Shown in pieces: positions 33,194-64,000 of a stretch of 64,000 nt of DNA; within the stretch, counting starts at the first letter, position 1; each line of letters begins with the position of its first letter. The stretch lies in contig CAJINV010000005.1 of the NCBI GenBank assembly GCA_905178155.1, positions 6,594,153 through 6,658,152 of the forward strand. The letters are read 5' to 3'. The notes beneath the pieces were generated by a model. That model was given only the letters and a program-made list of their open reading frames with translations, was not told where the DNA came from and ran no database searches. This stretch comes from Amoebophrya sp. A120 (taxonomy: Eukaryota; Protista; Dinoflagellata). The translations under genes and the position numbers were made by a program.

Positions 33194-36100
33194 ATGGCGC
33201 AGCAGCACCAGCTCCCGCACAGCCACCGGGCCGGGGATGTGGAGTACTTCAAATCTGCGCAGGGCATGACGGAACCGGAGAAATCTGTCACTGAGTTCCT
33301 TGCCATCGCGCACCTGGTGGAGCAGTCAGGCGATGGATCACAGATTTCCTTCAAGTTGAAGCAGGTGATGTTCATTACAAGAGCGCTTCCTTTTTTTGTC
33401 ATGCGTCATTTGTCCTCACATGCACTTGCATTTTTCGACCGAGAAACTTGTTTTTTTTTGTGTATGCATAAACAAAGTGAAAATTCATCATCCTAATTTT
33501 CACCAAACGTCACAGGCTATTTTGACCGACGACGAGGTGGCAGTCGCCACTTTGGCCAAGAACCCGTATGCATTGCAAAAGTAAATCGCACTGGCAGTAC
33601 AAATTGCATTTGCAAATTTTCTTAATAGCTGCAAGAATGGAGTTTATAATGCTGACGGACGTAAGGGTAAGCGGTGAGAGTGAGACTGCAATTTCTGCAA
33701 GTGCGATGCTTATCGTTTTGCAGAGGATAACCACTACCACAATGCGAAATCCGTAGTAGCGCTGTGTGTCGGGGTTGCGAGTAAAGCGGGGGAGGAAGTT
33801 TTGAAGGTTCTGTTGGAGAAAGTTGGAAAGGCGGAACCGCTGGACAAGGACGAGGTGTGCAAAAGCGTATTTGAGTTCGGAAAGGAAACGAAGACGGGAA
33901 GGGGAATACGGTACCAGGAGCCCGTCGTCATCACATCGAGTAGTCACTCCAAGCTGAATCGCTGCCCGGTGTCAATTGCCAAGCAGATGGACAACCGGCT
34001 AGCACTTCGGGTTTTGAAAAAATCCGCGAAATTCCGCGCCCCGGTGCACAATCACAGCTCCGCGGACGTGAAGAGATTTCGAGACGCCGAGACTATGCCG
34101 GAGCCGCGCAAAAGTTTAGAGCAGTTCCTGGCGGTAGCAGACATCTTAAAGGACGGGGGGAGCTCGGGCGCTCACTTGAAGGGCAGAATCAATTCAGCGT
34201 TGAAGCGGGCGATTCTGAAAAACGATTTGGCAGAAGTGAAGAAGGAAGACGTGGGCACTTCCTTCGTCGCCCTGTGCGTTGCGGCAGCGAGCAATTGTAG
34301 CAAGGAGGTGCTCGAGCATTTAGCTCGAAGATTCGGGCCACGAGCAAAAGGCGCAGACTTGGTCGAGCAGACGAAGGCTTTTAATCTCGAAGTGAACAAG
34401 CGCGTGCACATGTTCGGACTGGAGCTTGCCGGTGAGGAGCATACGACGACGAACCGGTACTACCACGGAGCAGAGTACTCCTTACTCGGCGCATGCCCAG
34501 TCGCAATTGCGATCCAAGCGGGGAATTACGCGGGGCTGGACTTGCTCTTGAAGAAGGGGTTTCCAATCGATCGCAAGCCGTATTACACGTCCGTCAGCTT
34601 CCAGCCCAGTCTGCTCCAGAAAGCGCTCTGCACAGCCGACAATGGGCAGCGTAAGTTGATGGAGGCCAAGGCGTCGGCGGTTACCATCGCGATCGAAGGC
34701 GGGGACCTGAACGCGCTGCAATTGATGCTAGACAACGGCGCGCTGGCGCGAGCGGATGTGGCGGAGCTCATCCTTGTCGCGATCAGAACCTCCGGCGCGA
34801 GAGTTTTGCGGTTTTTTTTGCAGCACAATTTCGCACGACGTCACGGCACTTTTCTCGATGCTGCTAACTTTTTCGACGCCGCGCTTCGGCGAAGCGAGTC
34901 CTCCAACCTGGAACGGCGTCAGGACCATCGAGTAGTTCTGTGGCCACAAGAACAAGCGGAGTGCTTCTTGTTGAGGCGCAAGAACATGTAGCAGGAGGCC
35001 GCGATGAAGCTAGTGGAAGTGCGAAAAACGACCACTGCACCTCCGTTTCGGAAGTACAACCTTCATCCGGGCCCACAACAGTCGCTGCTTCTGCCGCTAC
35101 TGGAACGAAAGACCAGGAGCCATCCGGAGTAGAGCAGCGCGGTGCAGAGGGAGTTCTCGGGGGACGAGAAAATGCTGATGCTCATGTGGGCCACGCTGTG
35201 AAGATTAACGAGATCGTCCACAAACCTGTCCTCGGCCACATCCAAAACGGGAATAAAAGAGACTACAGCCAACGCGAGCTCTTATTTCCCCCTGCAACTA
35301 CCAGCAGAGAGAGAGACGGCACGAACCAGAACGAAAACTCTACAAGTTCCAGGCCGACAACTCCTCACGTCGTCCCGCGCTTCCCCGAACGGCATTCCGA
35401 AGTGAACATGTACGTCGTGCAGCATAACTTCGACTTGGAGCGGCAGAAGTCAGATTCGGTTTCCAACCACTCGTCCCACCAGCACAACAGCTCGGCGGAC
35501 GGCATTGACTCGTTGTTAAACAGCTGTCCCGCCGAGTTGGAGAGCTCGCAGCAGAATTCCCCGGTGTTGTCCCGACAGGTGACCGCAAACACGTCCGGTG
35601 GCGGCAACAGCTCCCGGTCGGTCTCCCGGCAGTTAACCGCCAACAGCAACACAAGTTTTCCCCGGGCGTCGCTCGTGGCTGGGTGTACGATCGAAGACCA
35701 GGAGGGGGAGGAAGAAAATGTCGCTTTCAACCTACTTCCCACCCGCAGCGCAACTTCTCCTCGGGCAAAGGAAGGAACGGAACGGGAAGAACCACAGGGC
35801 GGGGGTATTGCAAGAAATGGAAACAGTTTTGTTGAAACTCAAAGTCAAACTACTAGTAGCGAAAGAACGTCGTCCGAAGTGGCCGCATGTAGTGCGACAA
35901 CCGATCACGTTTTATTTTCCGCTAATCGTGCAAGCAGCCGGTCGCGGCTAGGCGCAGCAGCAGCTCTTGCTGGGGAGACAATTCTACACCAGAATGGAGC
36001 TCCTGCAGCTAGTTCGTCTTTAGCGATCCCAGAGCACCGGGAGCAAGTCGAGCAGCACTACGGAGAGCAGCACTTAATGCAACACCGTCCGGCGGCGCAC

Positions 36101-37182
36101 CATTTCCACGGGAGTAATGGCTTAGTTTCGCAACATGGCGACTCGTTGTTGTACCACCACACCTCGCAACTCTCCAGCGGCCAGCAAACTTCAAACTCCC
36201 TGAATTGGCAGACCTCGGGGTTTCAAAGCACGTATGTCATCACCCGGGAGCAGTCGGATGTGACGGGGAATTCGAATTTGTCGGGGGATCAGGAGCAGAA
36301 TTTGAAAAATTGTAATGCGGACGAAGAAGAGGACAGCTACGAAAATTTTAAGGCCTTCGGTAATAGGTCTGATCTTGGCGCAGGAAGTTGTACGGAGCAG
36401 GGAGCTATTAACCCCGAGGTGCGAGAAAAAGCGAAGAATTATAACAACACCCTGGTAGAGGGAGGCAATGGTGGCTCTGTTCCTCGAGGTGGGATGAACA
36501 AGCATCATGAGCAACAAACGTCATCATCTTCATCACCACAGATTGCGAATTACAACACGACAGCAGCTGCTGCAAAAACTTCTACCTTTCACGGGACGGT
36601 ACTCTCTCCGGTGCTGCAAAGTAGAAGGACGACTGAAAGTTTGCTATCGACGCCGCGCTTCGGCGAAGCGAGTCCTCCTGCCTGTCGCTGCTGTTGCACC
36701 ACTTCGGCGGGAAGCTTCTCAACAGCTCCCACTTGCAAGCTTCTATTTTCACGCCGTGGGCGCAGAGTGCTGCGAGTCTGATCCTCAGCCACGGGTGCGA
36801 AAATTTGGTAAATCAGAAGCACAACTCCATGACCACGCTGATCGCCCTAGCTTACTACACCGAGACCCTCTGCATCAGCGACCAGAAGGCCACCGCCATT
36901 GCGAAGATTCTACTGGACTTCGGAGCGGATTTGACTGCTACCCGACTGGGGGAGACAGCCTTGGACTACGCAGTGAAATCCGGCAAAACGGAGCTTGCGT
37001 CTCTGCTAAGGATGGAGGAACTTGCGGCGAAATCCACCCGGGATGAGCTGGACAGATCTCTTGCTCTTGGCGGTGCAGGAGGGGCGTCAGCTGGATCGGG
37101 TTCGGGTGCTGCGGTCGGGAGCTCTGGGAGCGGATCGGGTGGGAGTGGGGGCACGGATCCGAAGCGGCGCCGGGTTGGGTAG
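33194..37182 (+). CDS. Ankyrin-repeat protein interrupted by a 1.74-kb insertion (possibly pseudogenised)
   Basis: Ankyrin-like motifs CPVAIAIQAGNYAGLDLLLKKG, SAVTIAIEGGDLNALQLMLDNGA and ILLDFGADLTATRLGETALDYAVKSGKTELASLL. GT-AG intron 33365-33515, introner 33567-33729. Frame restored by removing 34905-36678. Confidence 0.7.
33567..33729. mobile_element. Introner (TATGCATTGCAAAAGTA type)
   Basis: Imperfect TIR; TSD ACCCG/ACCAC; frame restored. Confidence 0.78.
34905..36646 (+). repeat. Diverged, introner-free copy of coding segment 16803-18768 inserted into the ankyrin gene with a 32-bp direct repeat
   Basis: ORF 34940 closely matches ORFs 16287/18115; TCGACGCCGCGCTTCGGCGAAGCGAGTCCTCC at 34873-34904 and 36647-36678. 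Confidence 0.9.
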
Positions 37183-41100: not shown

Positions 41101-44100
41101 GAGGAGTTTTCGCCTGTGAAACGGAATATCAGTGCAGCTGGGTCGACGTCCCCGTTCTTTGATAGAAGTAGTTCTCGCATTTCTTCTGACAACTTTCTCC
41201 GGTACAACACGCCGCTCTCCCTCGTCGCGCACGGAAAAGTGGTGGAATTTTCCAAGAAGGTCGACTTTTTGGAGCCGAATGGCGTGCGGAAGTCGAAGCT
41301 CCAGCTGAAACTCCGGGAGGACTATTCCGAACTTGACCCTCAGAGTAATCCAAGCTTCGGCCAGGGAGCGCCCGGGCATTTGTTCACCTTCTGCAAGGTG
41401 CCGAACCAAGATTTGTTGTACGATGATATTAACCCCCACCACGTCGGGTCCCTCCGTGGTTACTACGGAGGTGGAACATCAGGTGGTCCTTGCACGCAAT
41501 CCACAACGGCTACTTCCGGATCGGAAGCGAGTGAAAGAGGGCGGAACAATTATCGCGGTACTACTTCTCCCAGCGAAATAAACGACGTGATCCACTACGG
41601 CGATTTACTTCTGCTGCAACCCAAAGTCGCCAAGGCGTCGGACGAGCTAGATTTCCAGAACTTCGGCACCTACTGCATGTTGGTGTCGGCCCGGTTCGGG
41701 GTCAGCGGCCCGGTGGACCTGAGCGACGAATTCAATTCCGGAGTGATTCTGCTAACGTCCAACGCGGTAATAAAAGACCCGGACATCGACGAACACGCAA
41801 CCGCGTCGGTGCCGCTGGTGCCCACAGACCTCACCGCCCTGTCCCTAATCAAGCGCAACGCAATTCGGCTTGGCGGCTACATCGGGTTCTACAGTGACGG
41901 CACGGTGAATTACCTGGAGCCGCAAACCGCGACAAACAAGGACGCGGCCAGTAGTACCCTATGTAAAAACGTCCCCACCCCATGGTCAAGATGGGGACTT
42001 TGCAAGACGAACCTAGGAGTTTTGGGAGTTACGCATGACAAGTTGCACTCCGTAGTGTAGGGCAGGTTAGAAAGTGCAGCCGCGTCACAGATCCATCTGC
42101 TTATCCTGTTCCCAGCATCACAAATTCCAAAACACGACTGGAATGGTCTACCATGGGTATGCGCATCACAAATGTCCTTGTCATTGTAAATCTGCATGGC
42201 AACTCTGGGGTGGGGACGTTTTTCCTCAGGATAAGTAGCGGCGGGTCGACACTGTTCACGAAAACGACGACGGTAGACCAGCGGATTTTGCATCAACTAG
42301 TCCCCTCCACGTTCCAGATTTTGCCGGCTACTTCGCGGTCAAGGTCTCAGCAACACTACCAGCATTTTGGAAACAATGGTAACCACAGCGCCAGCAGCAC
42401 ATCACCTGCTCTACAACAACTTCCGGACGCAACCTCTTTCGAAAGTTTTTACTCGGTCGGGAGCGAAAATTTTTATAACGGAAACCACAGAGACGGAGCA
42501 ATGGTAAGTAGTAGCACCACAACCTCGTCCACACAAGAAGAAACGACAACTTTTTCCCTCTTAGTATACAACATTTGGATGATGCCGAAGTTGCTGACCG
42601 ACTGGTTACCCAAAGCGCTGAACCTGTCTCCCGGGAAATTTTACCGGTCTCGCCTGATCCCGCACAAAATTCCCAAGACCGACGTGCTGGTGTTCTGTGA
42701 AGCCTTTTTATCGCAAGAAAAAAGTGGTACAGTTACACATTGTGTTGCAGGCCAAGCAAGACAGGCAATCTCTGTAATGCCGGATCTGCATAGGAGCCTC
42801 GTTTCGTAGGTGTTTCCCGTAGGATTTCTGCATTACAAGTTTTCTCTCTCATGCAGAGAAATTTGTGTTGCTGAATTCACTACAAATGTGTAACTGTAAC
42901 ACTTTTTTCGTGGGATACTTTTGCGACTTGGAGATGGACCTGATCGGGCAGATTCTGCGGATATGCAAGAAAAAAAGAAGAATTGTAAGTTTGTGTTGCG
43001 AAGGAGACAAGACAGTCACACTTGTCATGCTGGATGTGCGTCATAGGCTTGCTCCATACGCGTTTTCACGCACTCGCTGCGCTGCATTACAAGTTGTTTC
43101 TGTAATGCAAAACAAATTTGTGATGCCACTCTCATACTAAGTACACACTTACACATTTTTTTTTTCGGGCATAGTGGAAGCAGTACGGCTACTGCTATGA
43201 CACCGTGGCGCCCCTGTCCGCGATCCTGAACTCGGGCGTGAAGATTTACTCCAAGCTATCCTATGTAGAAACGTCCCCACCCCATAGTCAAGCTGTACAC
43301 ACAAATTACATGATCAAGCATGACACACATAGATCCGTACACCTTTGCAAATGCTTCGCTCTAGTGCGTTGCATTCTGGTTTTTGTTTTACATCATTTTC
43401 ATTTTCACATACTCATTATAAAAATACATACACATAAGTAGATTATAGTCATTCTAATTGCGCGAAAGTAGTTGGTTGCGGACGGTAGTAGTTTCAGCGA
43501 ATGGTAGTGAGCCGGCACCCTCGGTGTGCCATTCGCATGACCTTGATTCTACTTACGCGAGCACCCACAGGCTCCGAGTTGCCTATGTTCTAGGTCAGAA
43601 CAGCGACCCGACCAGAGCCTGCGGGACCCCGAGGGCAGAAGTCCCCAACCCCTACAAGCACGCGCATAGCAATAAATACAGTACTATATATTAACAATGG
43701 CCACATAGAATAGCACGTTTTTCTCTTCTCGTCGTAGTTGGTTCTCCACACTCCTTTCCTGAAAATTTGAAGTTTCTCTGTGCTTTATTTTGGTCTCTTC
43801 CAGTACATAAACACCCCATAGTCAAGCTGGGAAATGTGCTAGACAAATCAATTACCTTTGGTCGCTGCGCATGACAAGTTTGGCCTCGTAGTGCGATTCT
43901 GTTTAGCTAGCGTCAGCAGCATGACAGATCTAGCACATCATGCCCATCCGAGCATCACAAACTCGAAAGCACGACTGGAAAACGCTGCTCATGGGGTTCC
44001 GCATGAGAAACATTTTTACTATGCAGCTTTGCATGACAGCTATGGGGCGGGTGCGTTTTTGCATAGGATAAATGCACAAGATTTTGAAAGCGGAATCGAA

Positions 44101-46648
44101 AATTTTTGAAAAGTGGAGCGGTGACGTATCATATGTAAAAACACCCCCACACCACAGTCAAGATGGGAAGTCTGCAACACAAATCCCCAAGTTTTGGGAG
44201 TTCTGCATGACAAATTTGGCCACATGGTGTAATCCTGTTTGGCTAGTTCAGCAGCATCACAGACCTAGCGCATCATGCCGATTGGAGCATGACAAATCTC
44301 GCAACACGACTAAAAAATGCCTCTCTCGGGGCTCCGCATGAGAAGCATTTTTACCATGCAGGTTTGCATGACAACTCTGGGGTCGTGGGGGCGTTTTTGC
44401 ATAGGATATGACGAGGGCGCTGCGAGCAAGGGCGTTACGTACGCGGAGATTGTGATGCACCAAAAGAGTTTTCACGTGTTCGCGGCGCACTTGCAGGCGT
44501 GGGAGAGCGCCAACGCGGTGAAGGCGAGGGAGTCGCAGATTTTAGAAATTCACGACTTCATCCAGGCGCAGGACATTCCGGAAACGGAGCCGGTCTTCAT
44601 CGTGGGGATATGCAAAAAGATACAACTTCTGCGCAAAAGTTGACTTTGTCATCATGCTAGAAGAGATCAGGGCAAATTTCTACGGCAATTTCAAAATTAT
44701 TGTTTTTGTCATGCGTTCGCGTTTAGGTTCACTTCGAGAGCAGCAACTTTTGCCATGCATACAGGGATCTGAACATCGACTTTTTTGACCGGAGTGGGGA
44801 ATACGAGTTTTTGATCTCCTCGCTCGACGCCGACAATTATCTGAACAACAGTATTTGGCAGACGTACCAGAAAACTACGCGACCAGGATTTCCGCCGAGT
44901 CGGATGACTCCCATATCACAAGGAAAAATCCCCCCTCCCCATATCAAAACGAAGTTTCTGATGCTGGATATGCGTACACAAATCCGACTTGTCTTGCAGT
45001 AGAGCACTGCGGCCGGATCCGCAGCCTAGGTAGGAGCGTTTTGGTCTAGTTGGCATTGCAAACGGCTACCCTATACCTAGGACCAGCAGCATGCCAAATC
45101 GCTTCCGCAATTGGTTGGATGCCTCTGCTCTTGTCTTCTTGCAAGACAAACCTGATTTGTGGTCACAAATCAGCAATGCAAATTTTCGCAAAGAGAAAGA
45201 TACCTTTTCAATATGGGGAGGGGGGATTTTTCCTCTCAATATCCCAACGCGGCCGCACGTGTGGAGAAAAAAGTGCAGCAGTACTACGCGAAAAGCATGG
45301 TGGCCGCCGGCGGGGAGGAAGTGAAGCAGCTGGAGACGGATCATTTGTTAAAGAACAACGAGTATGGATTGTAAAAATGTCTGGGGCTGGAAAATTGCTA
45401 CATTTGTCTTGCATGTCTGACATGACTCAAGAATCTGTGATGCATGGGCACGAAGCGGTCCTCTTACCTGTCACGCAAGAACGCAGTTTGCCATGCGGAA
45501 CACGCAACACATAGGAGCCCAAAAATTTGTCATGCTTGGCTTCGTATTGCAGTGGGCCTCTCATTCACCTCTAGCATTACAAGTTTCCAGACCCAGACAT
45601 ATTTGCAATGCATAACGAGGAAGAGAATTCCGACGGCATGATCAACAGCAACGACGAGGAAGAAGCGGAAGAGATCATTACCACCAAACCGGCGACCGAA
45701 ATGGGCATGGACGCCTTGAGTTCCGTGAAAATTTTAACCAAGACAAGCCCAGCGAAAAACAAGAATTTGAAAACCACGGTGGGCGGACCTTCGGGCGGCA
45801 TGCCGAGCCAGGGCGAGGGAGAGGACGAGGAAAATTTATTGAACGCGGATTTTGCAACTGATGCAACCACCGGTCGTAGTTCAAAAAAGGAGAAAAAGAA
45901 GAAATCTTCAGCGAAAAAATCAGAGGGTGATAATTCTCACCCCGTGGTCTCCTCTTCTTCCGGTTTGTTGAACGACAAAACGTCGGGAAATAAACAAAAT
46001 ATGAACCAACGTGCGAAGGAAAACGAGGTTTTTTCTTCCCCGTTGTTCCACGACCGGTTCGTGGAAGTGGGAAATCTTGCGGAAAACAAGAGTCCTGTTT
46101 CTGGATCAACTTCCAGCAGTACTAGAACCACCTCCAAGCAGCAGAATAGTTGTACTAAACCACATCTGCTGCCGCACGACTGGGCCTTTTCCGTCGATCC
46201 GGCGCTGAATCAGTGGATGCAGCTGGGCTCCATCAGTGCCGATGACAAGGCCCAGTGCTTGGACCACATTCTCGTGTCCCGACGACATCTCCAGCCCAAA
46301 CTGGTGAGCAGTAGAGATCATCAGGATCCCGCGGTAGTACCGAGCGGCGCCCAAGCAGCTGTAAACACCGTAAAGGTACTCCGGCTGCGGGCGCGAGAGG
46401 ACGAAGCCTTCCCGCACGATGCTGCAACAGGAGCAAACACGACCACCTCGGGAGGCGATGGAAACAGTGGGAGGAGTAAAAATGCGGTCGCGCCGGAGAT
46501 CATGAGCAGAGACGAAAACAACTCTACGAATAATTCATTGTCGCCAAGCAAGGGATCAAGGGCGGCGCGGAGGAAAGACGGCATTGAAGTAATGGAAATG
46601 CGGGATTTGTCGGACCACTTTCCTATCATGGGAACTTTTCGCTTTTGA
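38131..46648 (+). CDS. DEP-domain + neutral sphingomyelinase-like EEP-superfamily phosphodiesterase
   Basis: DEP-like NTVTGEQISQWLLKLGFCHSYEDCVVAIKILLKDEFL...FYR. EEP motifs LLVYNIW, DVLVFCEAF, NSGVKIYSK, KGVTYAEI, HVFAAHLQA, PVFIVGDLNID (after splicing), LDHILV and LSDHFPI. Twelve introners. Confidence 0.8.
38274..38541. mobile_element. Introner family A
   Basis: TIR; TSD GAGCT. Confidence 0.85.
39238..39517. mobile_element. Introner family C
   Basis: TIR; TSD TCAAG. Confidence 0.92.
39554..39860. mobile_element. Introner family G
   Basis: TIR; TSD CCGCT/CCGCG; similar to 3734-4040. Confidence 0.88.
40807..41058. mobile_element. Introner family A
   Basis: TIR; TSD CCGCG. Confidence 0.9.
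41955..42233. mobile_element. Introner family C (left end TACC)
   Basis: TIR; TSD AGTAG. Confidence 0.88.
42709..42917. mobile_element. Introner family B
   Basis: TIR; TSD CTTTT. Confidence 0.88.
42962..43173. mobile_element. Introner family B-like
   Basis: Imperfect TIR; TSD GCGGA/GTGGA. Confidence 0.82.
43257..44070. mobile_element. Introner family C with nested 516-bp insertion
   Basis: TIR TATCCTATG.../...CATAGGATA; internal 18-bp duplication 43278-43295 / 43812-43829. Confidence 0.85.
44127..44408. mobile_element. Introner family C
   Basis: TIR; TSD TGACG. Confidence 0.88.
44609..44761. mobile_element. Degenerate introner splitting the GDLN motif
   Basis: TATGCA...TGCATA; +5 removal restores VGDLNID and can be read as a GA-AG intron. 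Confidence 0.75.
44914..45241. mobile_element. Introner family E
   Basis: TIR; TSD TCCCA. Confidence 0.9.
45363..45614. mobile_element. Introner family A
   Basis: TIR; TSD ACGAG. Confidence 0.88.
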
Positions 46649-47581: not shown

Positions 47582-49629
47582 ATGCCTAGTTCCTCGAGTA
47601 CGTCTAACGCGGTCCCCGCGACCCCCGCGGTAGACAAGCGGAAGCGCAAGACAACCTCCCACGACGACACGATCACCTCCGGTGCTGGTGCAGCCACGAC
47701 GGGTAGTAAGAAACAGAAACAGCAGCAGAGCACCAGCAACGCAGGGACAACTGGGACATCTTCTGCAACCACGCAGGGGAACAACAGAGAAAACAAGCAG
47801 CAGTCTAAAGCCACAACCTCTGCTGGTGGTGCGGCCGTGGCGGGAACTACACACGGGCACAAGAACAGTAATAAGCAGGCGCAGATGCACCAGCAGCAGC
47901 AGCAGAACATGGATAATTTTCTGAACAACGACATCAACCTGCAGCACGAGCTGGCCACCGTCTCCGCGCCCGATCCCATCGCCTTGTTGCCCCAGTTGGC
48001 AGACGAGTTCCAGCGGTCGAACGGGAATGCGGGCAAACAGGGCGGCACGGTGAAGTTTACCAACGCGGACATCAAGGAACTCCGGACCAGCGGGTTCACC
48101 ACCATTGACTCGCTTCACTACCCACCCATGCGGAAGTTGCTCGCGATCCGGGGCATTTCCGAACAGAAAGCGGAGTTGCTGTGCAAGATCGGCCGCCAGT
48201 GCGCCAACTCGAGTTCCTCTTCTCGGCTGGAGTTTCAGTCGGCGCAGGACCACCTGGTCCAGGTGCGGCAGCAGTTTGTGAAGAAGATTTCGACCGGCTC
48301 GAGCAAGCTGGACGCGCTGTTGCAGGGCGGCATTGAGACCTCGTCGATCACGGAGATCTTCGGCGAGTTTCGGTCGGGCAAGACCCAGCTGGTGCACACC
48401 TTGTGCGTGATGGCCCAATTCCCCGTCGACCAGGGGGGCTGCGAGGGAAAAGTCTGCTTCATCGATACCGAGGGCACCTTCCGTCCGGAGCGGCTGCAGC
48501 AGGTGGCCGAACGGTTCGAGGTCGACAAGAACGACGTGCTGGATAACGTGGTGGTTTGCCGGGCGCACAACACGGAGCACCAAACGCAGTTGCTGACGGA
48601 GGCCGCGATTCTGATGGCCGAGCAGAAGTTCGGCCTGTTGGTGGTCGACTCCGTGACGAACCTCTACCGGACTGAGTACTCCGGGCGCGGTGAACTGGCG
48701 GACCGGCAGCAGCACCTGGGCCGCTTTCTGCGGTACATCCAGCGGTTGGCGGACGAATTTGGCATCGCGGTGGTCTTGACAAACCAGGTATAAATGTGAT
48801 GACTTGTTGAAGCGCTGTTTGCATTGTTTCTCATGGGAGGAAGCAGGAGATCAGATCTCTTGCTAGACCTCTGTTTTGTGATGCACAAACGAACCGTGTG
48901 CTGGCAGCGACGGACTGAGATCTTTGTCATGGATGCTTAGACACAATTGCAAGCATTAGCATTGACTAAGACGCGATCGTGAGATGAACAACCACTAAAA
49001 AATCAGGTCTGTGCGAAAGTCGACGGCACGGCAGCTTACGGTCCGAGTCACTGCCCGATCGGAGGGCACTATCCCACGAGAAAACTGTTTCCCTGTAACG
49101 ATCATTTTGCACTTTCACTTTCAGCATGATCACAATAAGTTTGTGACACACGACAAAGAAAAAAGTCCGCCATGCGTCCTTTCCAAGGGACGAAATCAAC
49201 GCGGATAAGGATGATCCCGTGGTGTCGTGTATCAATGTCTACTAGCAAGACAAATACGACTTGTGTAGGGCGTAATACTTTGTCCATCACAACAAGTCTG
49301 CACAGGGAAGTAGCAGTTTTTCCTCGTGATAGCCACGTGTTGGCGCATGCGTGTCAGACCCGGCTGTCCTTGCGGAAGGGGAAAGCGGAGGGACGGTTAT
49401 GCGAGTACACAACTACTTTTCCTCTCTCTCATTTTTGTCATGCGGAAGCTACATTTCTGTAGATTGTTTCTGTTGCTGTCCATGTCATGACACTTAAGTA
49501 CAAATGAAAGGCAGGGGAAGTAGAAGTTGTGCAGTCTCATAAAGGTTCTGCAAAATCTACGACTCACCCCACCTGCCCGAAGGGGAAGCGCCGTTTGTGA
49601 TCAGTGAGGGGGGAGTGGCGGACGACTAA
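47582..49629 (+). CDS. RAD51: DNA recombinase RAD51 with long low-complexity N-terminal extension
   Basis: Walker A GEFRSGKTQ, FIDTEGTFRPER, LYRTEYSGRGELADRQQHLGRFLR..LADEFGIAVVLTNQV. After splicing 48788-49006, 49070-49331 and 49398-49541: PIGGHVLAHACQTRLSLRKG...CKIYDSPHLPEGEA...GVADD*. Confidence 0.93.
48788..49006 (+). other. Canonical GT-AG intron in RAD51
   Basis: AACCAG|GTATAA...AATCAG|GTC restores TNQVCAKVDG. Confidence 0.88.
49070..49331. mobile_element. Introner in RAD51 (TATCCCACGAGAAAACTG)
   Basis: TIR; TSD GGCAC/GCCAC; restores PIGGHVLAHA. Confidence 0.9.
49398..49541. mobile_element. Introner family D-like in RAD51
   Basis: TIR; TSD ACGGT/AAGGT; restores GRFCKIYDSP. Confidence 0.88.
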
Positions 49630-51090
49630 GTCAACAGCATGTTGGGGGATTTGTTTACAGAGATACGACTTCAAAGTTCTGTATCTGTGGAGCTTTTCTA
49701 TGGTTTTTGACTCGTTGAGTTAAGTGTGCCAGGTGCAGATCGTGATATACCTTCCTAGAAAATCAACATTTTTATCTCGTGTTTCGTTTTTCTTTATTTT
49801 ATTGCCAAGAACTCACTTGTTCATCAGCGAAAAAGAAAGTCGTTCGTTATGACAGCCAAGAAAATGAAATGCACCAGAAACGAGAAATCATTGTCGTTTA
49901 TTGTCATCCTACTTTTCAGTCTTGTTGAGCTTGATTTTGTCTTCGTCCTGGATCTACTTTTCACTCTTGTACGATCTTGATAGAGCTAGATTTTGGTACG
50001 CGGAAAATCAAATGGCTTCATCGCACCACCTGAATTTGCAATGCTGATTGCCTATCAGTATACACAGAGTTTCTATAAAAATATTCTTAGATGTTATTGT
50101 TTGACTCGCCTCGGATTCAGTAGGATTTCGTCTTCTTCTTGGCGTTGCCACTTCACAATTCAAACACTCACTGTGTAGACGAGCTTATTTCAATTTCCTT
50201 CTACTAGTAGGTGTAGGATGGGGAAAGACTATTGCAATCATGTGTTGTGGCACAACCCTGAAGACTTGAGCTGCACTTGCCTTTGTCGTGAGGAGCTTGT
50301 CTAGATTTATTTTCACGACACGGGGCAGAGGACAATTTGAATTTTCCGGAGCTCCTGTGTCATCTCTGATGCAAACTCGGAACCAGAACTTCCTCCGCTT
50401 CGTGTGATAGACTTGAGATTTTTGTCTACAAAAATGATTTTCAAGCTTTTCGAAGTTTCTTGAACTTTTGCAACTTATGCCCGATTGTCTTTGACGATCA
50501 ACCACAGTAGGGATCCGCGTCCCCGCAGCAAAGACCGCCGGGCCAGCATGCAAAGCTGCGATAGTCAGTTGATACATTAATTGTTCGGAAAATTAGTCTT
50601 TTCGAACATGGTTTTATTTGTGCGCGGAAAGCTGCACCCTGTAATGGCGTTTTCTATTTTGTGGTCAGAGTTGCACGCGACATGGCGCGGACAGAGTCGA
50701 GGTCCACTTTTCACTCGATTCATCCGTCGAGAGCCATGTTTGTACTGTGACGAGCGATGGTCGTGATGGCGAGAGAGAGCGAGAGAGGGCGTAGTATCGA
50801 AGTAGGATTTCACAAGATGTCCGCGAAAAATAAGGGCGTGGCTGCGACCAAGATATTGATTCGTCTCACAGCCTCGTTCGCATGCCGCTAGAAGTCGTGA
50901 TATTGTTGCTTCACGGATGAGCAAAAAGCAAGGTCTATAAGCTTCGTGAAGCCGAAAAACTACAAAGCAAATCTGCGGCATCAAGTGCAGCGTGATGGAT
51001 ACTTATACCAGTTTGCGTGATGGTTGAAAGTTTGAAAGTAAGCCGAGATAGTGAAGTTACAAAATCTTGAAGTGAAACAACCACCAACAA

Positions 51091-54000: not shown

Positions 54001-57000
54001 AGACAGACCAGCTCTGTCATGCCGGATATGCATAGGAGCTTCGTTTCATGGGTGCTTTATTCCCTTAGGATTTCTGCATTGCAAGTTGCATTCTCTCTCA
54101 TGCAGAGAAATTTGTGTTGCTGAATCGACAACAAATGTGTAAGTGTAACAGTTTTTTCCTGTGATACGGAGTCACCGGGCCTTGCACCAAGAGCGCATGG
54201 AGGACCTATGCATTGCAAAGATGTCTCGGTCTGGAAGCATGGAGCTTGTAATGCTAGTCGTGCATTCCTGTAAAATCTGTATTGCATGACTATACAAAGA
54301 AGACGCCCTCTTTAGTCATACAAAGCACAGTGTCTCATGCGGACTGAGCATGAGAGAGCGTTCTGCAAACTTGTCATGCTTGGCTGCATTGGCAAATATT
54401 TCAGTCATCCACAGTTCAGCATCACAAGTTTCCAGAGCCAGACATATTTGCATTTGATAGGACCACTTTGCGCACAATTACAATCCCGGGTTCTACGGCT
54501 CCAACAACCACGGCCACGACGTGATGCACATGAATTTCGCGTCTACCCTATCCTGAGCGAAAACGTCCCCATTGTCATGCAGATTTGCAATTACAGGAAA
54601 ATTTGTAATGCGCACTCTTATGGAAGACATTTCCAATCGTGTTTATTTGGAATTTGTGATGCTGTAAACAGGATAAGAAAAAGGCTTTCTGATGCAGCTG
54701 TCCTTGCTAAACTGCACTACAATACACAGAGAAACTTGTCATGCGTGACTCGCAAAAGTTCTGAATTTGTGTTGCTAAGTTCCCAACTTGCCTATGGGGT
54801 GGGGACGGTTTTTCAAAGGATACACCCGACCGCAGTCGGCCGCGCCCGCGAAAAATCGGTGGACGGTGCACGCGCACAAGGAACAGATGCTATGCGTTGC
54901 AAACATGTCCTTGTCTGGATCTGGCAGATTGCAAGTTGTCATGCTGAATCTACACCATGCAATCGCAAAATAAAAATCTGTGTTGCATGAGTACCAAGCA
55001 AAAGGTGTTCGCTTTTGACCAAGTTGAGAGAGGGTTTCTCATGCAGGAAAGGCATGATAAAGACCTCAAAGAGTCTGTCATGCTGGGTTCCCCATTCCAG
55101 ACCTCACGGGTCATGGAAAACCTGCATGACAAGTTTTGCAACCTTCCAGACCCTGAAGTGTTTGCATTTGATAAAAGCAGGCCCTGAGCAATCGACCGCG
55201 GACCGCTCCCTACGGGTCGTCGGCGCACCAGGTGGCCAACCAGCGGGACAAGGACGAGTCCTACAATGCGCTCAGCAACCTGCAACAGATGTTCACCAAA
55301 GTGCACAAGGAAAATCAGGTCCTGATCCAGCAAAAGCTAAACGTGGAAACGGAATTGCGCGAGTATTTGTCGACGAAGGAAGGCCACATGGCCAAGCATA
55401 TGGATTGCAAATATGTCTGGGTCTGGAAGATTGCGAAATTTGTCATGCTAGTCTGGCATGACTCTGAACTCTGTGTTGCATGGCCGCGAAGAGCTCCTCC
55501 CCCCTGTCATGCAAAAACGCAGTTTGTCATGCGGAGTACGCAACTCAGAACCATGAACAAAACTTGTCATGCTTGGCAGCACATCATAGTGAGTTCACGA
55601 CTCCCTTTCTTGCATCACAAGTTTCCAGATCCAGACATTTTTGCATTTGATAAAGGAAATATTCGAACAACGGGATTTGGTGAAGTCCTTGCGCACTCGA
55701 CTTTACAACATGGAGCAGGATAACGTGCGCGCGACGGCGAAAGCTAAGCGGTGTGAAATATCAAATGCAAAAATGTCTGGGTCTGGTTCTGGAAGAACGC
55801 AACTTGTGATGCTGCATTTGGATGTCTAAAAAATTTGTGTTGCATGAGCAGCAAAAGGATTCTAATTTTTGCTACGCGGAGAGGGCATTTGTCATGCGGA
55901 ATAGGCATCAAGAATCCCTCAGAAAACCTGTGATGCTAGGGCATGCATCACAGATCGATCATGGCTCATGCAAACCGTGCATGACAAGTCTCAGAAAAAT
56001 CTTCCAGACCCAGACATTTTTGCATTTGATACGAAAGAAGGGCATACGAAGAAGAAATGTTCCTGAAGCAAGCGTATTTTTAGATTCTTCTTTTTGTTGT
56101 CATGCGGGATGACAAGTATAAATGCAAAAATGCATCACAAGAAAATTGCTTACTGGTGTCATAATTTTGCGCATCAGAAATCCACATCTTATATCAGCAT
56201 GAAGGAGATTATCGAAGCGTCAGGATTGAAATCGTCAAAGTTGAAATAACTTGCAATGCATAAAATCGATACCAGTTCGAAGCCCAATTTCCAAGCGGCG
56301 CATGACAAATTTCCCGAGCACCGGAATCCAATTTGTCATGCTGTTTGGGCACAGACGACTGCTTTTGTCATGCTACTTTAGCAGCTCTATTTCAAACCCT
56401 AAACAGGCTGACAGTCGGCCTCACTTGCCATCCCGGCAAGACAGGCACTTCATGCCTTGCATTTCATGCATGACAAATCATTTCAACTTTGTCGATTTCA
56501 CACCTGACGCTTCCATAGAGATCGAGACTCTGAAGCAAGTAACGGTGGAACTGCAGCGCATGAATTTGGAGCTACATTTACGAAAAGTTGCGTTGCGGGC
56601 GAGCCAGGACATAAACTGGTTGTCATGCGAATTGTCATCATGCTGGATCTGGAAATAAAGCGCCAGCCGCTTTTTTTCTCTCGCGCGCGTGAGCAAGAGA
56701 GCACCAGCAACCGGCCGCTATTGCATAGACATGACAGCAAGTTTGCTATCTATGTGTTGAAAATAATAAATTTGATGTTCTGCCTCTCGTCCGCTTTCCT
56801 CCCTTCCATACACGGAATCCCCCCAAATGAAGCTGATTGAGCAAAAGCTGTACAAGTTTCAGAAGGGCCTCACCAAACGCACGAAGGAGCTGAACGACCA
56901 GAACGATGCCCAGGATGAGGCGGTGCAGGAGATTTGGGTCCGGGTAGAGAAGGTGAACACCAAGGTGGACGGGCTCTACGCAATGACGGAAGCGGTATTT

Positions 57001-58249
57001 GGTTTGTGTTGTAGATGGGAATTGCAAAAGAAAGGCGCTGTATCATGCACTAAGATCGAAGAAAATTTCATTGAAAAACAAAGATCTGAATCAGTCTACC
57101 AAGAAGAGATACTTAATTACTTGCCCGAGTCTCGACCTACTTCTCCGTGAAACAAAATCCAGCTGCAGCAAGACCGGAATGAGGCGGGCGTGTTGCTGAA
57201 GGTCGGGCGGGAGCGGATCAAAGAGTGCAAGCAGACGTTGCAGAAACTGGCCCAAGACTTCCATACGAACTGCAACAGTATCGTACTCGTAGTATCTATT
57301 GCAACACAAATTAGCTCAGCACGACAAATGGGATTTCTCATGCTGATCGAGCTTGAAAAAGAAATTTGTCTTGCATGACTGCGATCAGTACGACGAGTGC
57401 GATACTTTTGCACAGGATGTTCCAACAATTGAAGCAAAACGCGGACGACTCGGAGCGAAAATACCAGCGAATCTTGAAGCGTCAAGACGAGGAAACCAAC
57501 AAGATCAACGCGCTGCAGCGAACGTACAGGGAGATCCTGGAGGAGGTGGTGGGCAATAACAAGTGGTACAAGCGAACGAATAAGGATTTGGAAAACGAAA
57601 ATGCGCAGTTGAAAAAGGAAAACACGGAACTGCTAGAGTCGCTGATGGCCTACTTGATGCTGAACCAGCAGTCTTCGCTCCTGAAGGGCAAGGCGAAGAA
57701 AGCGCTAGATCCGTTAACCGTCACCGCGGAAAAGAAGCGGGTGCCACCCCCGTTGGACAACCGGAAAGCGATATGCATTTTGCAAATACTTGTGTCTGAG
57801 GCTGGATAATTTGTGATGCGAAAGTTGAAGGACAGGAAGATCTGTGATGCATGGCTAGGAGTGGCGGCGCCTTTTGTGTCGTGGTGGAAGAGAGTTTGTC
57901 ATGCAAAGCCCGGTACTAGAAATCGCTTCGCAATGCTGGGATCCGAAAAATTTGTGTTGCGCTAATGCCGTACAAAGCATCGCCCTTTCATGCCACACTC
58001 AGCATGACAGGCGGCGCACTTTCAAGTATCCAGGCCCAGATCGTCGAAGATATTTGCATTGGATAAGCGAACGAGAAAGACGATGACGGCAACGCGCACA
58101 AGAGCAGCATCTCCACGCAGCCCTACCCCATCCACGAGCCGATTGACTTGCCGCCGCCGCCGGAGGGGGCGTTGCTCAGTCCACGGGTCCTGGTGGAGGG
58201 GAAAAACGTGCCGATTTTGCTTGGGGAAATTGTGGATGTGAACTGTTAG
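51091..58249 (+). CDS. Large coiled-coil/low-complexity hypothetical protein with at least 12 introners
   Basis: Coiled-coil-like exons (LQNRVNQLEQMLDLQRNEYKERVERW, LQQMFTKVHKENQVLIQQKL, NKDLENENAQLKKEN). The last exon ends GEIVDVNC* after element removal. Some introns at 56-57 kb not resolved. Confidence 0.65.
52020..52229. mobile_element. Introner family B
   Basis: TIR; TSD GGGTG. Confidence 0.87.
52731..52993. mobile_element. Introner family A
   Basis: TIR; TSD GGGGC/GACGC. Confidence 0.85.
53082..53290. mobile_element. Introner family B
   Basis: TIR; TSD TCTTA. Confidence 0.9.
53948..54166. mobile_element. Introner family B
   Basis: TIR; TSD CGGAG; similar to 42709 and 31276. Confidence 0.9.
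54207..54459. mobile_element. Introner family A
   Basis: TIR; TSD GGACC. Confidence 0.88.
54549..54822. mobile_element. Introner family C
   Basis: TIR; TSD TACCC/CACCC; inverted relative to 9189. Confidence 0.86.
54891..55173. mobile_element. Introner family A
   Basis: TIR; decayed TSD GATGC/AAAGC. Confidence 0.82.
55399..55652. mobile_element. Introner family A
   Basis: TIR; TSD AAGCA/AAGGA. Confidence 0.88.
55759..56031. mobile_element. Introner family A
   Basis: TIR; TSD TGAAA/CGAAA. Confidence 0.9.
56210..56517. mobile_element. Introner family G, inverted relative to 3734/39554
   Basis: TIR; TSD GAGAT. Confidence 0.88.
57264..57419. mobile_element. Degenerate introner (ends TACG...GATG)
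   Basis: Sub-terminal IR AGTATCGTACTCGT/ACGAGTGCGATACT; TSD TTCCA; restores DFQQLKQ. Confidence 0.78.
57772..58065. mobile_element. Introner family A-like
   Basis: Imperfect TIR; TSD AGCGA. Confidence 0.83.
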
Positions 58250-59620: not shown

Positions 59621-61539
59621 ATGCGAATCGCAAAGCAATCTTCCCGTCTCACACTCCTCCGCGAGCTGTTTCTGTTGCAGCAAGCACACGAGCAGGGCGG
59701 CAGACCAGTCGTACACGGTTACCAGGAAAACAAAAAACGACTTCGGGGAACCGCGAGAGAAGCGCGCGAGACGGAGGAAAACGCTTTCTCCGTTGTTGCG
59801 GAAGGCAATAAAAAAGGCGGTGGCAAAAAAGAGAAGAACAAGGAGGGACGAGGTAGTAAAAGAGACAAAAAGAAGGATCCAGATGAAAATCAAGAAGGCG
59901 GAGCAGGGGATGCAATTGCGGACGCGGTGGACACGCAAGATGAGAACAAGAAGACGAGGAGGAAGAAGGCCAGCAAAGGCAAGCCAACAGAGGCGGCGAC
60001 CACAGATGCAGAAATAGGGCCCGACGGCGGGGTATCAACTGTAAAAATGTCGGGGTCTGGAAGAGTATTAAACTTGTCATGCAGGTTTTCCATGACGCGT
60101 GAGGTCTGCGTCTGGAATGCGGGACCTAGCGTGACAGAGTCTGTGAGGTCTCTGCTATGCCTATTCTGCATGAGAAACTCCCTCCGAACTTGGTCGAAAG
60201 TGAACAGCATTTGGCCCTCATGCAACACAGATTTTCGCACTATCCGGATTTAGCATGACAACTTGCAATCTTCCAGACCCAGACATTTTTGCAATCCATA
60301 CGGGGCCGCAGCGGAAGTAGACAATGGAGCCTCAGCAGATGCCGATCAAGAAGCGGATAGCGATGAAAGCAGCAATATCCTGAGTAAAAACGTACCCACA
60401 CCAGAGTCAGGATGGGGATTTTGCAACACAAACCTAGGAGTTTTGTGAGTCACGCATGACAAGTTGCACTCTGCAGTGTAGTGCAGGTTAGCAAGTGCAG
60501 CCGCGTCCCAGATTCATCTGCTCATCCTGTTCACAGCATCACAAATTCCAAAACAGGATTGGAAATGGCTCTCATGGGGATGCGCATTACAAGTCTTCCT
60601 GTCTTTGCAAATCTGCATTACAACTCTGGCGTGGGTACGTTTTTACTCAGGATATAGGCGGCCGGAGGTAGGGAGAACGAGAAGAAGCAGCGCCGCAAAG
60701 CCACTACCGATAGTGGTGACGAGAACGCGAATATCAAATGCAAAACAAGTGTCTAGGAGGTCTGGAAGAATGCATGTTTGTCACGCTTCTCTGGCATGAC
60801 TCTTAAATCTGTCATGCACGTTACCCAAGAGCCGCCTTTTTCTGTCATGCAGAAACGCAGTTTGTCATGCAGAATAGGCAACACCTAGAAGCTCAAAAAC
60901 TTGTCATGCTGGGCCAGCACTTGTGGCCTTCTCATGATACGCCACCCAGCATCAGAAATTTCCAGACATCCAGGGATATTTGCATTTGATAGCGAACGAC
61001 GATCAAACGGAACGAGAAGGAGCTGCACCAGCAGCGGACGAAAACTCCTTCGCAGCCAAGTGGCAGAACGTGCGGAAAAGAGCGAGTGAGGGTATGACCT
61101 GCTCAAACGTTAGAATCTCAAACGTTACAATAGAATCTGAGACTTGTCTTGCATATGTGTATAAGCATGACAGACTCGCAGACCGTTCCACTTTCTGCAG
61201 TACAAATTTCGGCATATTGTAGTGCGGTTCGGGACTCCGGAACTTGTCGCGCGCAGTCCTATGAGACTCGGCTAGATCATGCACTTCTTGCATCACAGAT
61301 TTCGACATCGGGGATGAAGAAATACTCGCGATGTTTTCGCGGTTCTGACCCGATGCCGCTCCAGCGCCTGCGGAGGCTTGCTTCCCCAGTGATAATGGAC
61401 AATGGCAATGTCGGTGCGGTTGTTTTAGCATCACAGATTTCGACATTCTATTGCAGCGTTTGAGATTGTAACGTTTGAGCAGGTCATAGGGGGCTGGCAG
61501 TCCTTCAAGGACAGCGCGTTGTCCAGGCTCGGCAGCCTG
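59621..61539 (+). CDS. 5' part of a hypothetical Lys/Glu-rich protein with hydrophobic N-terminus; continuation lies past the retroelement
   Basis: MRIAKQSSRLTLLRELFLLQQ... continues across four introners to EGWQSFKDSALSRLGSL, then meets a fifth element end. Confidence 0.6.
60033..60300. mobile_element. Introner family A
   Basis: TIR; TSD CGGGG. Confidence 0.9.
60376..60654. mobile_element. Introner family C
   Basis: Near-perfect TIR; flanks AGCAA/TAGGC do not match, but +5 removal restores frame. Confidence 0.88.
60732..60991. mobile_element. Introner family A
   Basis: TIR; TSD GCGAA. Confidence 0.88.
61093..61488. mobile_element. Introner family F (TATGACCTGCTCAAACGTTA)
   Basis: ~32-bp TIR; TSD GAGGG/GGGGG; internal repeat GCATCACAGATTTCGACAT twice. 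Confidence 0.9.
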
Positions 61540-61563
61540 TATCCATTGCAAATATATCTGGGC
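61540..61563. mobile_element. Left TIR of a family-A introner interrupted by the LINE
   Basis: TATCCATTGCAAATATATCTGGG directly followed by RT coding sequence. Confidence 0.72.
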
Positions 61564-64000
61564 TCACCCGCGAAATTAACAAACGAGTAAGAGACGACCG
61601 GGCAGCATGGGTGCGCGAAAAAATACAAACCTTGAAGCAAGCTGACTGCAGCGGGAATACGAAGCTGATTTTTGAAACAGTGCGGCAGCTTGCGGGAAAA
61701 GGGCGAAAGCGGCCGCAGGAGCTGCCGGGACCAGCAAAATTGTGGACCGACTTCTGGGGGGACATCTTCGGCAAGGAAAGGCCGGAGCCTCCAGCAGAAA
61801 CGAAGCAGACAAAAACCTGGGCACGGTGTGAAGCAGAAATTCAGAAAAATCGAGAAGGCCCAACATGGTGCGAGGGCCTCGGCGAAATCCCCACAGAGGG
61901 AGAGGTGGTCGCAGCGCTTCGGGAGCTGAAAGCGGGCAAAGCATTCCACGGGCCCTGCCCGGCGGAGTTTGCAAGGGAATGCCCAACAGTTCAAGCAGTG
62001 CTGGTGTCTCTCGTGCGTCGAATTTTTCGGGGAGACGAAATCCCCGAAGAGTGGGGCGAGGCAGTAGTAGCCATGCTCCACAAGGACGGCGTGAAACACG
62101 ATCCGAAAAACTGGAGACCGATCGCCCTGATTTCTTTGGGCGAAAAATTGCTGGGCCTCGTCATCCTGAGAAGAGTAGAAGAAGGGGCCAACAGAGAAAT
62201 GGACCCCCGGCAGAAAGGGTGCCGGCGCGGACTGTCGACCCGACACGCAGTGTTCGAGCTGCTGAGGGACATCGAAAAAGCCAACAAAGAAGGGCGCCGC
62301 GCCCTGTATGCCTTCATCGACTTCGCGAAGGCGTTCGACAGCCTTTCATGGCCCGCCATGGAGGCCATCCTGCGACTTCAAGGAATGCCAGAAAATATCT
62401 GTCGCGTGCTCCGCGACATGTACCGGCGCAACGCAAAGTGGAGCATCCGGCTGGGGAAAGACCGGAACACCGAACAACGAAAACAAAAGAGCGGCATAAG
62501 GCAAGGCAGCGCGCTTTCGCCGTTGTTGTTCGCACTTTGCGTCGATTGGGCCCTAAAACAGTTCGCAAAAACGATGGAGGAGGAAATGAAGTGGACACAA
62601 GACCAAGCCCTTGCCCAGGCCCTGGCCTGGCTTGGGTATGTAGACGACCTGGCCGTCAAGGCCTCCAGTGTCCCCGACATTGAGTTTGCGATGCGCGAGC
62701 TCTCCAGCGCGTGTCGCTTCATAGGCCTCGACTTGAACATCCGAAAAACGAAAGTTTTGGCGGTTAACCAAGAAGCAGAACAGAAGCAGAGCCCCACCGC
62801 CATGATGGAGAAGTGCATCATGGACGGGGAAGAGGGGTGGACGATCGACTACTGCGGGATTGACTGGGATAAAGAGTGGCAGACAGCAGCAAAATCCATC
62901 CCGCTTGCCGGGCTCGGCGACCTCGCGCCAACTCATCTGGTTGTCTGGGACAACCCGGCGATCGGTGTGCAGATCATCGCGTCCAAGCCGAGTGGGTGGG
63001 CAACCGCTCATTGCGGCACTAGCATCCGGCTTACGAGATTAGGCCTGCGGAAATTTGTCCTGGAAGAGAAAAATAGTTTTACTTGCGAGAAGTGCGGCGA
63101 TGTCCTCGCGGACGAGACCGCGCTTCATTTTCACAAAACGACCGGGTTTTGCCGGCCGAACAAGTCGGTGAAAGAATTGCGCACATTGCGGGTCGCGCGA
63201 ATGGTGGAGCAAAAGAAGAAACGAAAAGCCCGGCCGGACGCCGCGGCCGGGCTAAAGGCGGTCAAGCTCCATGGCAAACCGGTGGAGTGCGTGGGGTCGT
63301 TCAAGTACCTCGGCACGGAGGTAGGGTGTGACGGCTCCACCGATGCCGAGACGCATCGCAGATGCGGTCTAGCTCTCGGTGTCGTCCGCCAGGTCTCTCC
63401 CGTCTGGAGGGACAGTAGCGTCCCAACCCACCTGAAAGCCGACTTGTTCCGTTCTCTCTCCCTCAGCGTTGCTTTGTACAACGCTGAGACATGGACTATT
63501 TCCCCAGCAGCAGCTACTTCCTTGCGACAGTTCCAGGACAGTGCCCTGCGGTACGTCCTGGGGGGACACTACAGAAACGCAGAGAAAAGTAGGGAGGAGC
63601 TGTGCGCCGAGCTAGGCCTGCAGGCGATCGAGGACGAAGTAAGATGCAAGAGAATCGGATGGATCGCGCACACATGCAGGGGGATGCAAATGAGGGGTCG
63701 ATGCGCAGAATCGAGCAAGAGATAAACCGCAAAACAGCATGGGGAAAACAAGCAGGAGACGATTTGGATTTGTTCAACATACCCTTCAGCGAACTGAAAA
63801 ACACAAAGCCGACCGGGGAAGCAATACGGGCGACGCTGGCGCAAAGAAGAAAAATACAGCCGGTGCAGCGCAAGAGGGGCGTGGAAGCAGGCAGACCGAA
63901 GTCGAGAAAGCGCACAGAGATGGAAGAAGAGAGAAGAAAACGACTAGAGCAACAAAGACAGGAGACTGAGGCAGCAAATAAAGTTTTACTATTGCGGATC
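61564..64000 (+). mobile_element. 5'-truncated non-LTR retrotransposon (LINE, RTE-like), runs off the window end
   Basis: RT motifs NWRPIAL, QKGCRRGLST, FIDFAKAFDSL, GIRQGSALSPLLF, YVDD (~62637), FKYLG and WIAH. No endonuclease domain upstream; starts abruptly inside an introner TIR. Confidence 0.9.
61611..63725 (+). CDS. Reverse transcriptase ORF of the LINE (N-truncated, probable frameshift near 63680)
   Basis: 704-aa ORF with non-LTR RT motifs. A shifted frame stays open from ~63683 to the window end. Confidence 0.85.
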   Translation: MREKIQTLKQADCSGNTKLIFETVRQLAGKGRKRPQELPGPAKLWTDFWGDIFGKERPEPPAETKQTKTWARCEAEIQKNREGPTWCEGLGEIPTEGEVVAALRELKAGKAFHGPCPAEFARECPTVQAVLVSLVRRIFRGDEIPEEWGEAVVAMLHKDGVKHDPKNWRPIALISLGEKLLGLVILRRVEEGANREMDPRQKGCRRGLSTRHAVFELLRDIEKANKEGRRALYAFIDFAKAFDSLSWPAMEAILRLQGMPENICRVLRDMYRRNAKWSIRLGKDRNTEQRKQKSGIRQGSALSPLLFALCVDWALKQFAKTMEEEMKWTQDQALAQALAWLGYVDDLAVKASSVPDIEFAMRELSSACRFIGLDLNIRKTKVLAVNQEAEQKQSPTAMMEKCIMDGEEGWTIDYCGIDWDKEWQTAAKSIPLAGLGDLAPTHLVVWDNPAIGVQIIASKPSGWATAHCGTSIRLTRLGLRKFVLEEKNSFTCEKCGDVLADETALHFHKTTGFCRPNKSVKELRTLRVARMVEQKKKRKARPDAAAGLKAVKLHGKPVECVGSFKYLGTEVGCDGSTDAETHRRCGLALGVVRQVSPVWRDSSVPTHLKADLFRSLSLSVALYNAETWTISPAAATSLRQFQDSALRYVLGGHYRNAEKSREELCAELGLQAIEDEVRCKRIGWIAHTCRGMQMRGRCAESSKR

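Follow-up and report, generated by a model that had tools for sequence, protein, structure and literature searches.

The window analysed here, a 64-kb stretch of the genome of Amoebophrya sp. A120, carries a RAD51 gene on its + strand, corresponding to the A120 gene GSA120T00009824001 (protein CAD7951669.1, 470 aa). The features of this gene are listed below by position in the window.

47582-48787, + strand: RAD51 exon 1
48784-48788, + strand: CCAGG, putative 5' copy of a target-site duplication (TSD) in the introner register, followed by TAT (48789-48791), as read from the sequence
48788-49006, + strand: RAD51 intron 1, GT-AG, 219 nt, phase 0 (TNQ|V), with no TIR
48795-48932, + strand: four same-strand motif copies or near-copies, at 48795, 48829, 48877 and 48925 (spacing 34, 48 and 48)
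49003-49007, + strand: TCAGG, putative 3' TSD copy (4/5 match), preceded by AAA and not by the introner ATA
49070-49331, + strand: element of RAD51 intron 2, a TAT..ATA TIR introner with TSD GGCAC/GCCAC; RNA-like contigs skip 267 nt
49396-49544, + strand: RAD51 intron 3, a TIR introner (49398-49541) readable as GT-AG, TSD ACGGT/AAGGT
49547-49630, + strand: RAD51 last exon, approximate, its 5' boundary being ambiguous within the TSD

The spliced RAD51 product was identical to the A120 protein CAD7951669.1 (P0246) at 470 of 470 residues. RNA-like contigs of the runs X1 and X2 skip the 219 nt of intron 1, with a joint from 48784 to 49004 at which 5 letters fit either side and the GT..AG cut lies at +3; introns 2 and 3 are skipped in the same contigs. 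X1 and X2 represent one sample, and the runs X1-X4 were called RNA by guess rather than from their records. Raw RNA reads of X9 and X10 matched nothing beyond introner ends, and no splice joints were seen in them. RAD51 intron 1 is a genuine GT-AG intron that is precisely removed. In intron 3, an interior segment of 45-50 nt (49434-49484) matches four other genomic contigs at less than 90% identity, and these matches are a remaining sign that this old, short introner belongs to a family.

All statistics given here were drawn from this one 64-kb window and concern small samples, and its exon, introner and intergenic classes were drawn by hand. A window-wide catalogue comprised 60 elements with TAT..ATA inverted ends (TIR introners), one of which (60376) was excluded from the TSD tests because it has no TSD match. 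The 5-nt flanks of the other 59 were identical in 36 cases, with one mismatch in 17 and two mismatches in 6. Empty sites were found for five elements (six copies, in duplicated exon segments), and each carries a single 5-mer, indicating that the introner flanks are true 5-nt target-site duplications. Single linkage placed the elements in 23 families, whose members can lie in either orientation inside + strand genes. According to the accessible text of Farhat et al. 2021 (PMC7789003), the inverted repeat (IR) of A120 introners opens with TAT and then has about 7 variable nt before an A run, and their direct repeats (DR) are 3-5 nt long. The TAT..ATA elements of the window are the introner system of that study, as far as its accessible text describes it.

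Several further observations were made on the elements of the window. All 60 catalogued TIR introners were genic and none lay in the approximately 11 kb of intergenic DNA (P ~2e-9 by length share, with the classes drawn by hand); enrichment of introners in genes is also stated in the accessible part of PMC9860276. A gene segment at about 16780-18740 is duplicated in the next gene (about 34870-36640) minus the introner at 18039, leaving a clean empty site at 36152. The element at 23166-23448 has an empty site at 22704 that reads CCCAG, so that its upstream TSD copy, CGCAG, is the changed one. The long TIR introners at 21342-22057 and 43257-44070 have unrelated sequence nested within them, and by a length check the latter is spliced as a single unit. 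Two related long inserts in a Mei2-like gene (14652-15440 and 20085-20945) lie between duplicated exon segments, start with TAT..AAAA, have the ends GTCACAGTCAC in common and contain no core motif; they are a different element class. At 61093-63722, an open frame of 748 codons containing a domain of the reverse transcriptase type (RVT_1, E 4e-26) is directly preceded by an element of 396 nt with a TIR of 44 nt, the two overlapping slightly; this may be an introner within a non-LTR retrotransposon. An assembly gap at 12079-12212 (134 nt of N) has purine-rich, low-complexity flanks. A search of viral contigs for the introner TIR gave no match.

We examined RAD51 intron 1 for the marks of an introner. 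No TIR was present (score 10, p=0.80), the end profile (-4 and -20) was at background level, like that of intergenic DNA, no hairpin was detected (z -0.58), and the A run at about +11 after TAT was absent, the TAT itself being present. The intron carries, all on the + strand, TGTGATGC at 48877 (perfect), TGTCATG at 48925, TGTGATG at 48795 and TCTCATG at 48829, and its motif score was significant against 500 shuffles (p=0.016), confirming the earlier note's description of an intron with a TAT start and internal motifs and without a TIR. The 5-nt boundary repeat described in the same note is the pair CCAGG/TCAGG, which matches at only 4 of 5 positions and is not perfect. The perfect 5-nt repeat around the intron is CAGGT (48785-48789 and 49004-49008), which is out of the introner register. 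Both the 4/5 and the 5/5 match are expected anyway from the CAG|G (proto-splice) consensus at both ends, and a 4/5 match of this kind (GCAGG/ACAGG) is also seen at the TIR-less intron 33365, whose start is not GTAT. Alignment of intron 1 with the introners of the window did not beat motif-preserving shuffles (p=0.51), and there was no family match. No second copy of it was found in the DNA run X5 at 80% likeness, a weak result, as the TIR-bearing intron 2 was likewise single.

The internal motif is widespread among the introners of the window. The pair TGTCATGC/GCATGACA was the most over-represented 8-mer of the window, with 110 occurrences versus 3.1 expected. For the degenerate form TGT[CG]ATGC the count was 150 in the 16,089 nt of the 60 TIR introners (9.3/kb), 3 in the exons (27,829 nt) and zero in the intergenic DNA (11,174 nt). 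Same-strand pairs 31-33 nt apart were favoured among 23 family representatives (15 pairs, the null maximum being 10 in 2000 permutations), and the copies tended to point inward (27:16 versus 17:25, p=0.05); a scan for 10.5-nt periodicity gave no peak, the signal being the one 31-33-nt class. The core motif is absent from 14652-15440, 20085-20945 and 9818-10000, all outside the counted classes, and these motif-free intervening stretches indicate that it is not universal.

We then considered the GT-AG introns of the window that, like RAD51 intron 1, have no TIR. This set comprised six introns (9516, 29895, 33365, 48788, 56074 and 56995), four of them with boundaries set by reading frame only. 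The members other than intron 1 are listed below with two related elements.

9516-9707, + strand: TIR-less GT-AG intron, GTAT start, two core motifs; frame-only boundaries
29895-30063, + strand: GT-AG intron of a Mei2-like RRM gene, TIR-less and starting with GTAT, GCATCACA at 29983 and GCATGACA at 30026, repeat 2/5
33365-33515, + strand: TIR-less GT-AG intron, GTGATG start, one motif, GCAGG/ACAGG; frame-only boundaries
56074-56197, + strand: TIR-less GT-AG intron, G|TAT..ATA|TCAG in the introner register, two core motifs, TSD 0/5; frame-only boundaries
56995-57162, + strand: TIR-less GT-AG intron starting with GTAT, without an exact copy of the core motif and weak in motif score (p=0.044); frame-only boundaries
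5761-5956, + strand: ambiguous old element, with a TIR reading (5761-5952 plus 5 nt) or a GT-AG reading (5775-5956), both in frame
44607-44764, + strand: decayed introner in an endo/exonuclease/phosphatase-family gene, TAT at 44609 to ATA at 44761, 5' TIR damaged and 3' TIR intact

Two candidates were dropped from the set, 5775-5956 because of its TIR remnants and second in-frame reading, and 56608-56832 because its ends are uncertain. The six introns hold 6 copies of TGT[CG]ATGC in 1,023 nt versus 0.08 expected, and each outscored its own shuffles for the motif (p 0.004-0.044), including 56995, which has no exact core copy. Five of the six start with G|TAT (p=0.005, assuming that GTAT makes up 25% of donors). 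The enrichments of the motif and of GTAT starts that the earlier note had named as a check are present among the TIR-less GT-AG introns of this one window. Its proposal that the TSD supplies AG|G is poorly supported, since among the five GTAT-starting TIR-less introns only that of RAD51 has the exon context AG|G; the other four, if introner-derived, must have gained AG later.

The intron at 29895-30063 had been described as similar to that of RAD51. Its GTAT start, both motifs (p=0.004) and lack of a TIR (p=0.39) bear this out, and its flanks (AACGG/TCAGG), agreeing in just 2 of 5 positions, amount to no direct repeat. Removal of the intron yields the junction LPVTT|VMISN, which the annotated A120 protein P0248 (RRM_2) also has. 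Alignment with the introners of the window was not above motif-preserving shuffles (p=0.49), and a search with the Mei2-like exon gave no close relative beyond A120's own protein. For the element at 44607-44764, the GA-AG reading that had been suggested is valid, as are GG-CA and AT-GG, all of them giving one mRNA and restoring the frame FIVG|DLN. Its TIR is not lost: the ends read TATGCA..TGCATA, the 3' end scores 12.0 (background 99th percentile 3.1), an inner inverted repeat persists (p=0.03), and the element retains a TAT..ATA inverted repeat. The TSD copies, GGGGA/CAGGG, match at 2 of 5 positions, with CAG lying within the 3' copy, and the intron is exactly 5 nt longer than the element. 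Together with six neighbouring introners it reproduces a 625-nt stretch of an X1 contig exactly, the predicted and observed lengths being equal.

Elements that keep their TIRs and can already be read as GT-AG numbered 5 of 59, about 2 being expected from exon 5-mers. Three of them, besides RAD51 intron 3, are as follows.

3500-3721, + strand: TIR introner readable as GT-AG, TSD CGAGG/CGAGA, the mismatch creating GT; boundaries from sequence only
8419-8600, + strand: TIR introner readable as GT-AG, TSD GCAGG/GCAGC, the mismatch creating GT; boundaries from sequence only
19359-19585, + strand: young introner with a perfect 20-nt TIR, TSD TGAGG, GT-AG from birth

The young element at 19359 is proposed as the starting state of the route discussed below. 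At 49396 an intronic C>A change creates AG, and the RNA-like contigs retain the upstream C, which shows the change to lie on the intronic side. Among the 17 single-mismatch TSDs, the mismatch itself creates GT or AG in three (3500, 8419 and 49396), versus 0.53 expected (p=0.017, post hoc and uncorrected). Gains and losses of AG in the downstream copies of mismatched TSDs, counted by hand, were about 4 versus 2, which is not significant. The association of TIR decay with GT-AG readability held in part. The five readable elements were less similar to their families (p=0.022) and shorter (p=0.045), and had weaker TIRs (p=0.07), all three comparisons being post hoc, uncorrected and small. GT-AG-readable TIR introners tend to be older and shorter.

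The age of RAD51 intron 1 was assessed from its position in relatives. The nearest relatives of A120 RAD51 are P0224/P0247 (93% identical), P0121 (77%) and P0006 (70%), which form successive outgroups; in a tree of 24 rows over the last 150 residues, the node joining A120 with P0224/P0247 had support of 94/92, and the enclosing clades were starred (97/92 and 100/98). All four gene calls read through TNQ|V and through both TIR-intron positions. They lie on contigs of 6217, 3276, 6362 and 2286 nt, three of which (3.3-6.4 kb) are longer than the transcript (2.4 kb), and each of the four calls is truncated N-terminally; the contig sizes and the N-terminal cuts suggest that the calls come from genomic DNA. 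If their origin is genomic, intron 1 was likely gained in the A120 lineage specifically, one gain being more parsimonious than the three separate losses otherwise needed. Of the 26 RAD51 loci recovered in a metagenome scan, none was a close relative of A120 RAD51; 5 (about 3 lineages) have an intron at TNQ|V and the other 21 read through it. The presence of introns at TNQ|V in these distant eukaryotes (5/26 loci) indicates that the site is a re-used proto-splice site. The earlier note had named an ancient, shared position as evidence against its idea; a position that is not ancient within its own clade is supported by the read-through in the three nearest lineages and qualified by the intron-bearing sites at greater distance. 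In a set of 220 RAD51 gene calls, about 14, belonging to distant taxa or taxa without a name, also break at TNQ as judged by eye, and are uninformative on ancestry. One distant eukaryote (L004) has a 92-nt GC-AG intron at TNQ|V (match oriented +, starting after 3036), and four other loci (L010, L017, L024 and L025) show an apparent break four codons downstream (VVAQ|).

Taken together, we regard it as rather probable that RAD51 intron 1 is a descendant of an A120 TAT..ATA introner inserted at CAG|G, which later lost its TIRs and kept the motif. An introner would have inserted at CCAGG (a CAG|G site) in RAD51, where the 5-nt target duplication and the first T of the element would have supplied GT-AG. 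Once GT-AG was present, the TIR hairpin would have been freed from selection and the converted intron spliced by the spliceosome; the TIR ends would have been lost afterwards and the internal motif retained. The other TIR-less introns may also descend from introners, most of them presumably having reached GT-AG through point mutations that arose later in the TSD copies on the intron side and not through a ready-made AG|G.

Simple neutral decay of the TIRs agrees poorly with the motif that is retained. Core-motif density was 16/kb in family members, 7.6/kb in old singletons and 7.8/kb in the six TIR-less introns. In simulated neutral decay at 15-20% divergence both ends were lost in 2-4% of young elements only, and at 30% divergence the motif was down to 1.7/kb versus the 7.8 observed (P=0.002 for 8 copies). 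As decay rarely erases both ends with so much motif left, either the motif would be under selection or the ends would have been lost abruptly.

The second of these options leads to another account, in which the introns are new but arose without stepwise domestication, the interior of an introner having been captured at CAG|GT (for example, in break repair) or its ends deleted at once, with the motif unselected. It would account for erased ends alongside fresh-looking motifs and for the perfect CAGGT repeat on both sides of RAD51 intron 1, and the first bases of that intron, TATAAATGTGATG, resemble by eye the interior of the 6768 element, TATAAATTTGTGATG. However, the interior alignment was not above shuffles, capture alone leaves the GTAT starts of 5 of 6 introns unexplained, and stepwise intermediates are present (3500, 8419, 44607 and 49396). 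We consider this account unlikely.

It is equally doubtful, in our view, that the TIR-less GT-AG introns are simply ordinary and partly ancient, with GTAT as A120's preferred donor and the motif as a general intron mark, gained under selection or via nested insertions and silent on descent. The lack of any TIR, TSD or family trace, the retention of more motif than neutral decay allows, the occurrence of the motif in 33365, which has no TAT start, and the TNQ|V introns of distant eukaryotes all agree with such an origin. So does the figure in the accessible text of PMC7789003 that about 19% of A120 introns lie at positions common to A25, nearly all of them canonical; many TIR-less GT-AG introns should accordingly predate introners, which counts against descent. 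Against an ordinary origin, the read-through of RAD51 in the three nearest lineages would require its loss in each of them, and a motif missing from 14652-15440, 20085-20945 and 9818-10000 is not universal.

Within the favoured descent from introners, the role of the motif admits a bolder proposal. The TGT[CG]ATGC array could be a selected intron-definition mark, used by a spliceosome apparently without U1, that permits splicing of TAT..ATA elements at non-canonical ends in either orientation and outlives TIR and TSD during conversion to GT-AG, so that most canonical introns of A120 would be domesticated introners. The proposal builds on the 31-33-nt spacing of the array, its occurrence on both strands and in many introner families, and its absence from intergenic DNA; we put it forward tentatively, as a possibility well short of even. 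Introner decay normally leaves no trace, and a motif that outlasts the TIR would allow old introner-derived introns to be counted genome-wide. It would also be a candidate signal for how Amoebophrya splices its more than 60% non-canonical introns without detectable U1 snRNA. If the motif is merely a transposase-binding relic, the present case would be one more, modest illustration of a route already in print.

MITEs and hAT elements carry subterminal transposase-binding repeats, a short motif being repeated within the element. The A120 motif is like these in its internal repetition, inward tendency and fixed spacing, and unlike them in occurring in many unrelated families, spanning the whole element and persisting in TIR-less introns. 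We know of no protein that binds the A120 motif.

The route as such, in which a target duplication gives splice sites and later decay leads to ordinary introns, is already published for Amoebophrya, Polarella and fungi, as judged from the accessible parts of those reports. The new part may be an internal motif that outlasts TIR loss: a text-only search, lying mostly outside the subscription literature, found no published description of TGT[CG]ATGC in Amoebophrya introns or of its persistence. The accessible text of Farhat et al. (PMC7789003) gives 35% of A120 introns as GT-AG and 1.5% as GA-AG, states that 15% of the canonical introns retain IR and DR, and reports that U1 snRNA was undetected in A120. 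Their A120 introner elements (IEs) match those of this window in organism, in the TAT-start IR, in direct repeats and in the canonical introns with IR and DR. TIR-less descendants, TSD mismatches that create GT-AG and the internal TGT[CG]ATGC array do not appear in the accessible text of that paper and come from the present analysis. Set against the A120 IE definition, RAD51 intron 1 lacks the 8-20 nt IR and further copies and resembles an IE end state.

Splice sites supplied by the TSD (NNAGG/NAGGH), signatures that fade with age and donor conversion are described in the available text of Roy et al. (bioRxiv 10.1101/2020.10.14.339549). The Symbiodinium splice-site conversion reported there runs from GA to GC. 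Class 12 of the introner-like elements (ILEs) of Polarella glacialis has GH..AG ends from birth, in contrast to A120 introners, which are mostly non-canonical and of which only some turn GT-AG, as far as the accessible accounts go. Further context is found in the accessible parts of PMC11282704, PMC12130899, PMC12005148 and PMC6482013. Fungal ILEs, according to the available text of Collemare et al. 2013 (PMC3609843), shorten, lose structure and end up indistinguishable from ordinary introns. They are spliceosomal from the start, with no shift from non-canonical to canonical ends described in that text, unlike the introners of A120; the likeness between the two systems lies in their degeneration into regular spliceosomal introns.
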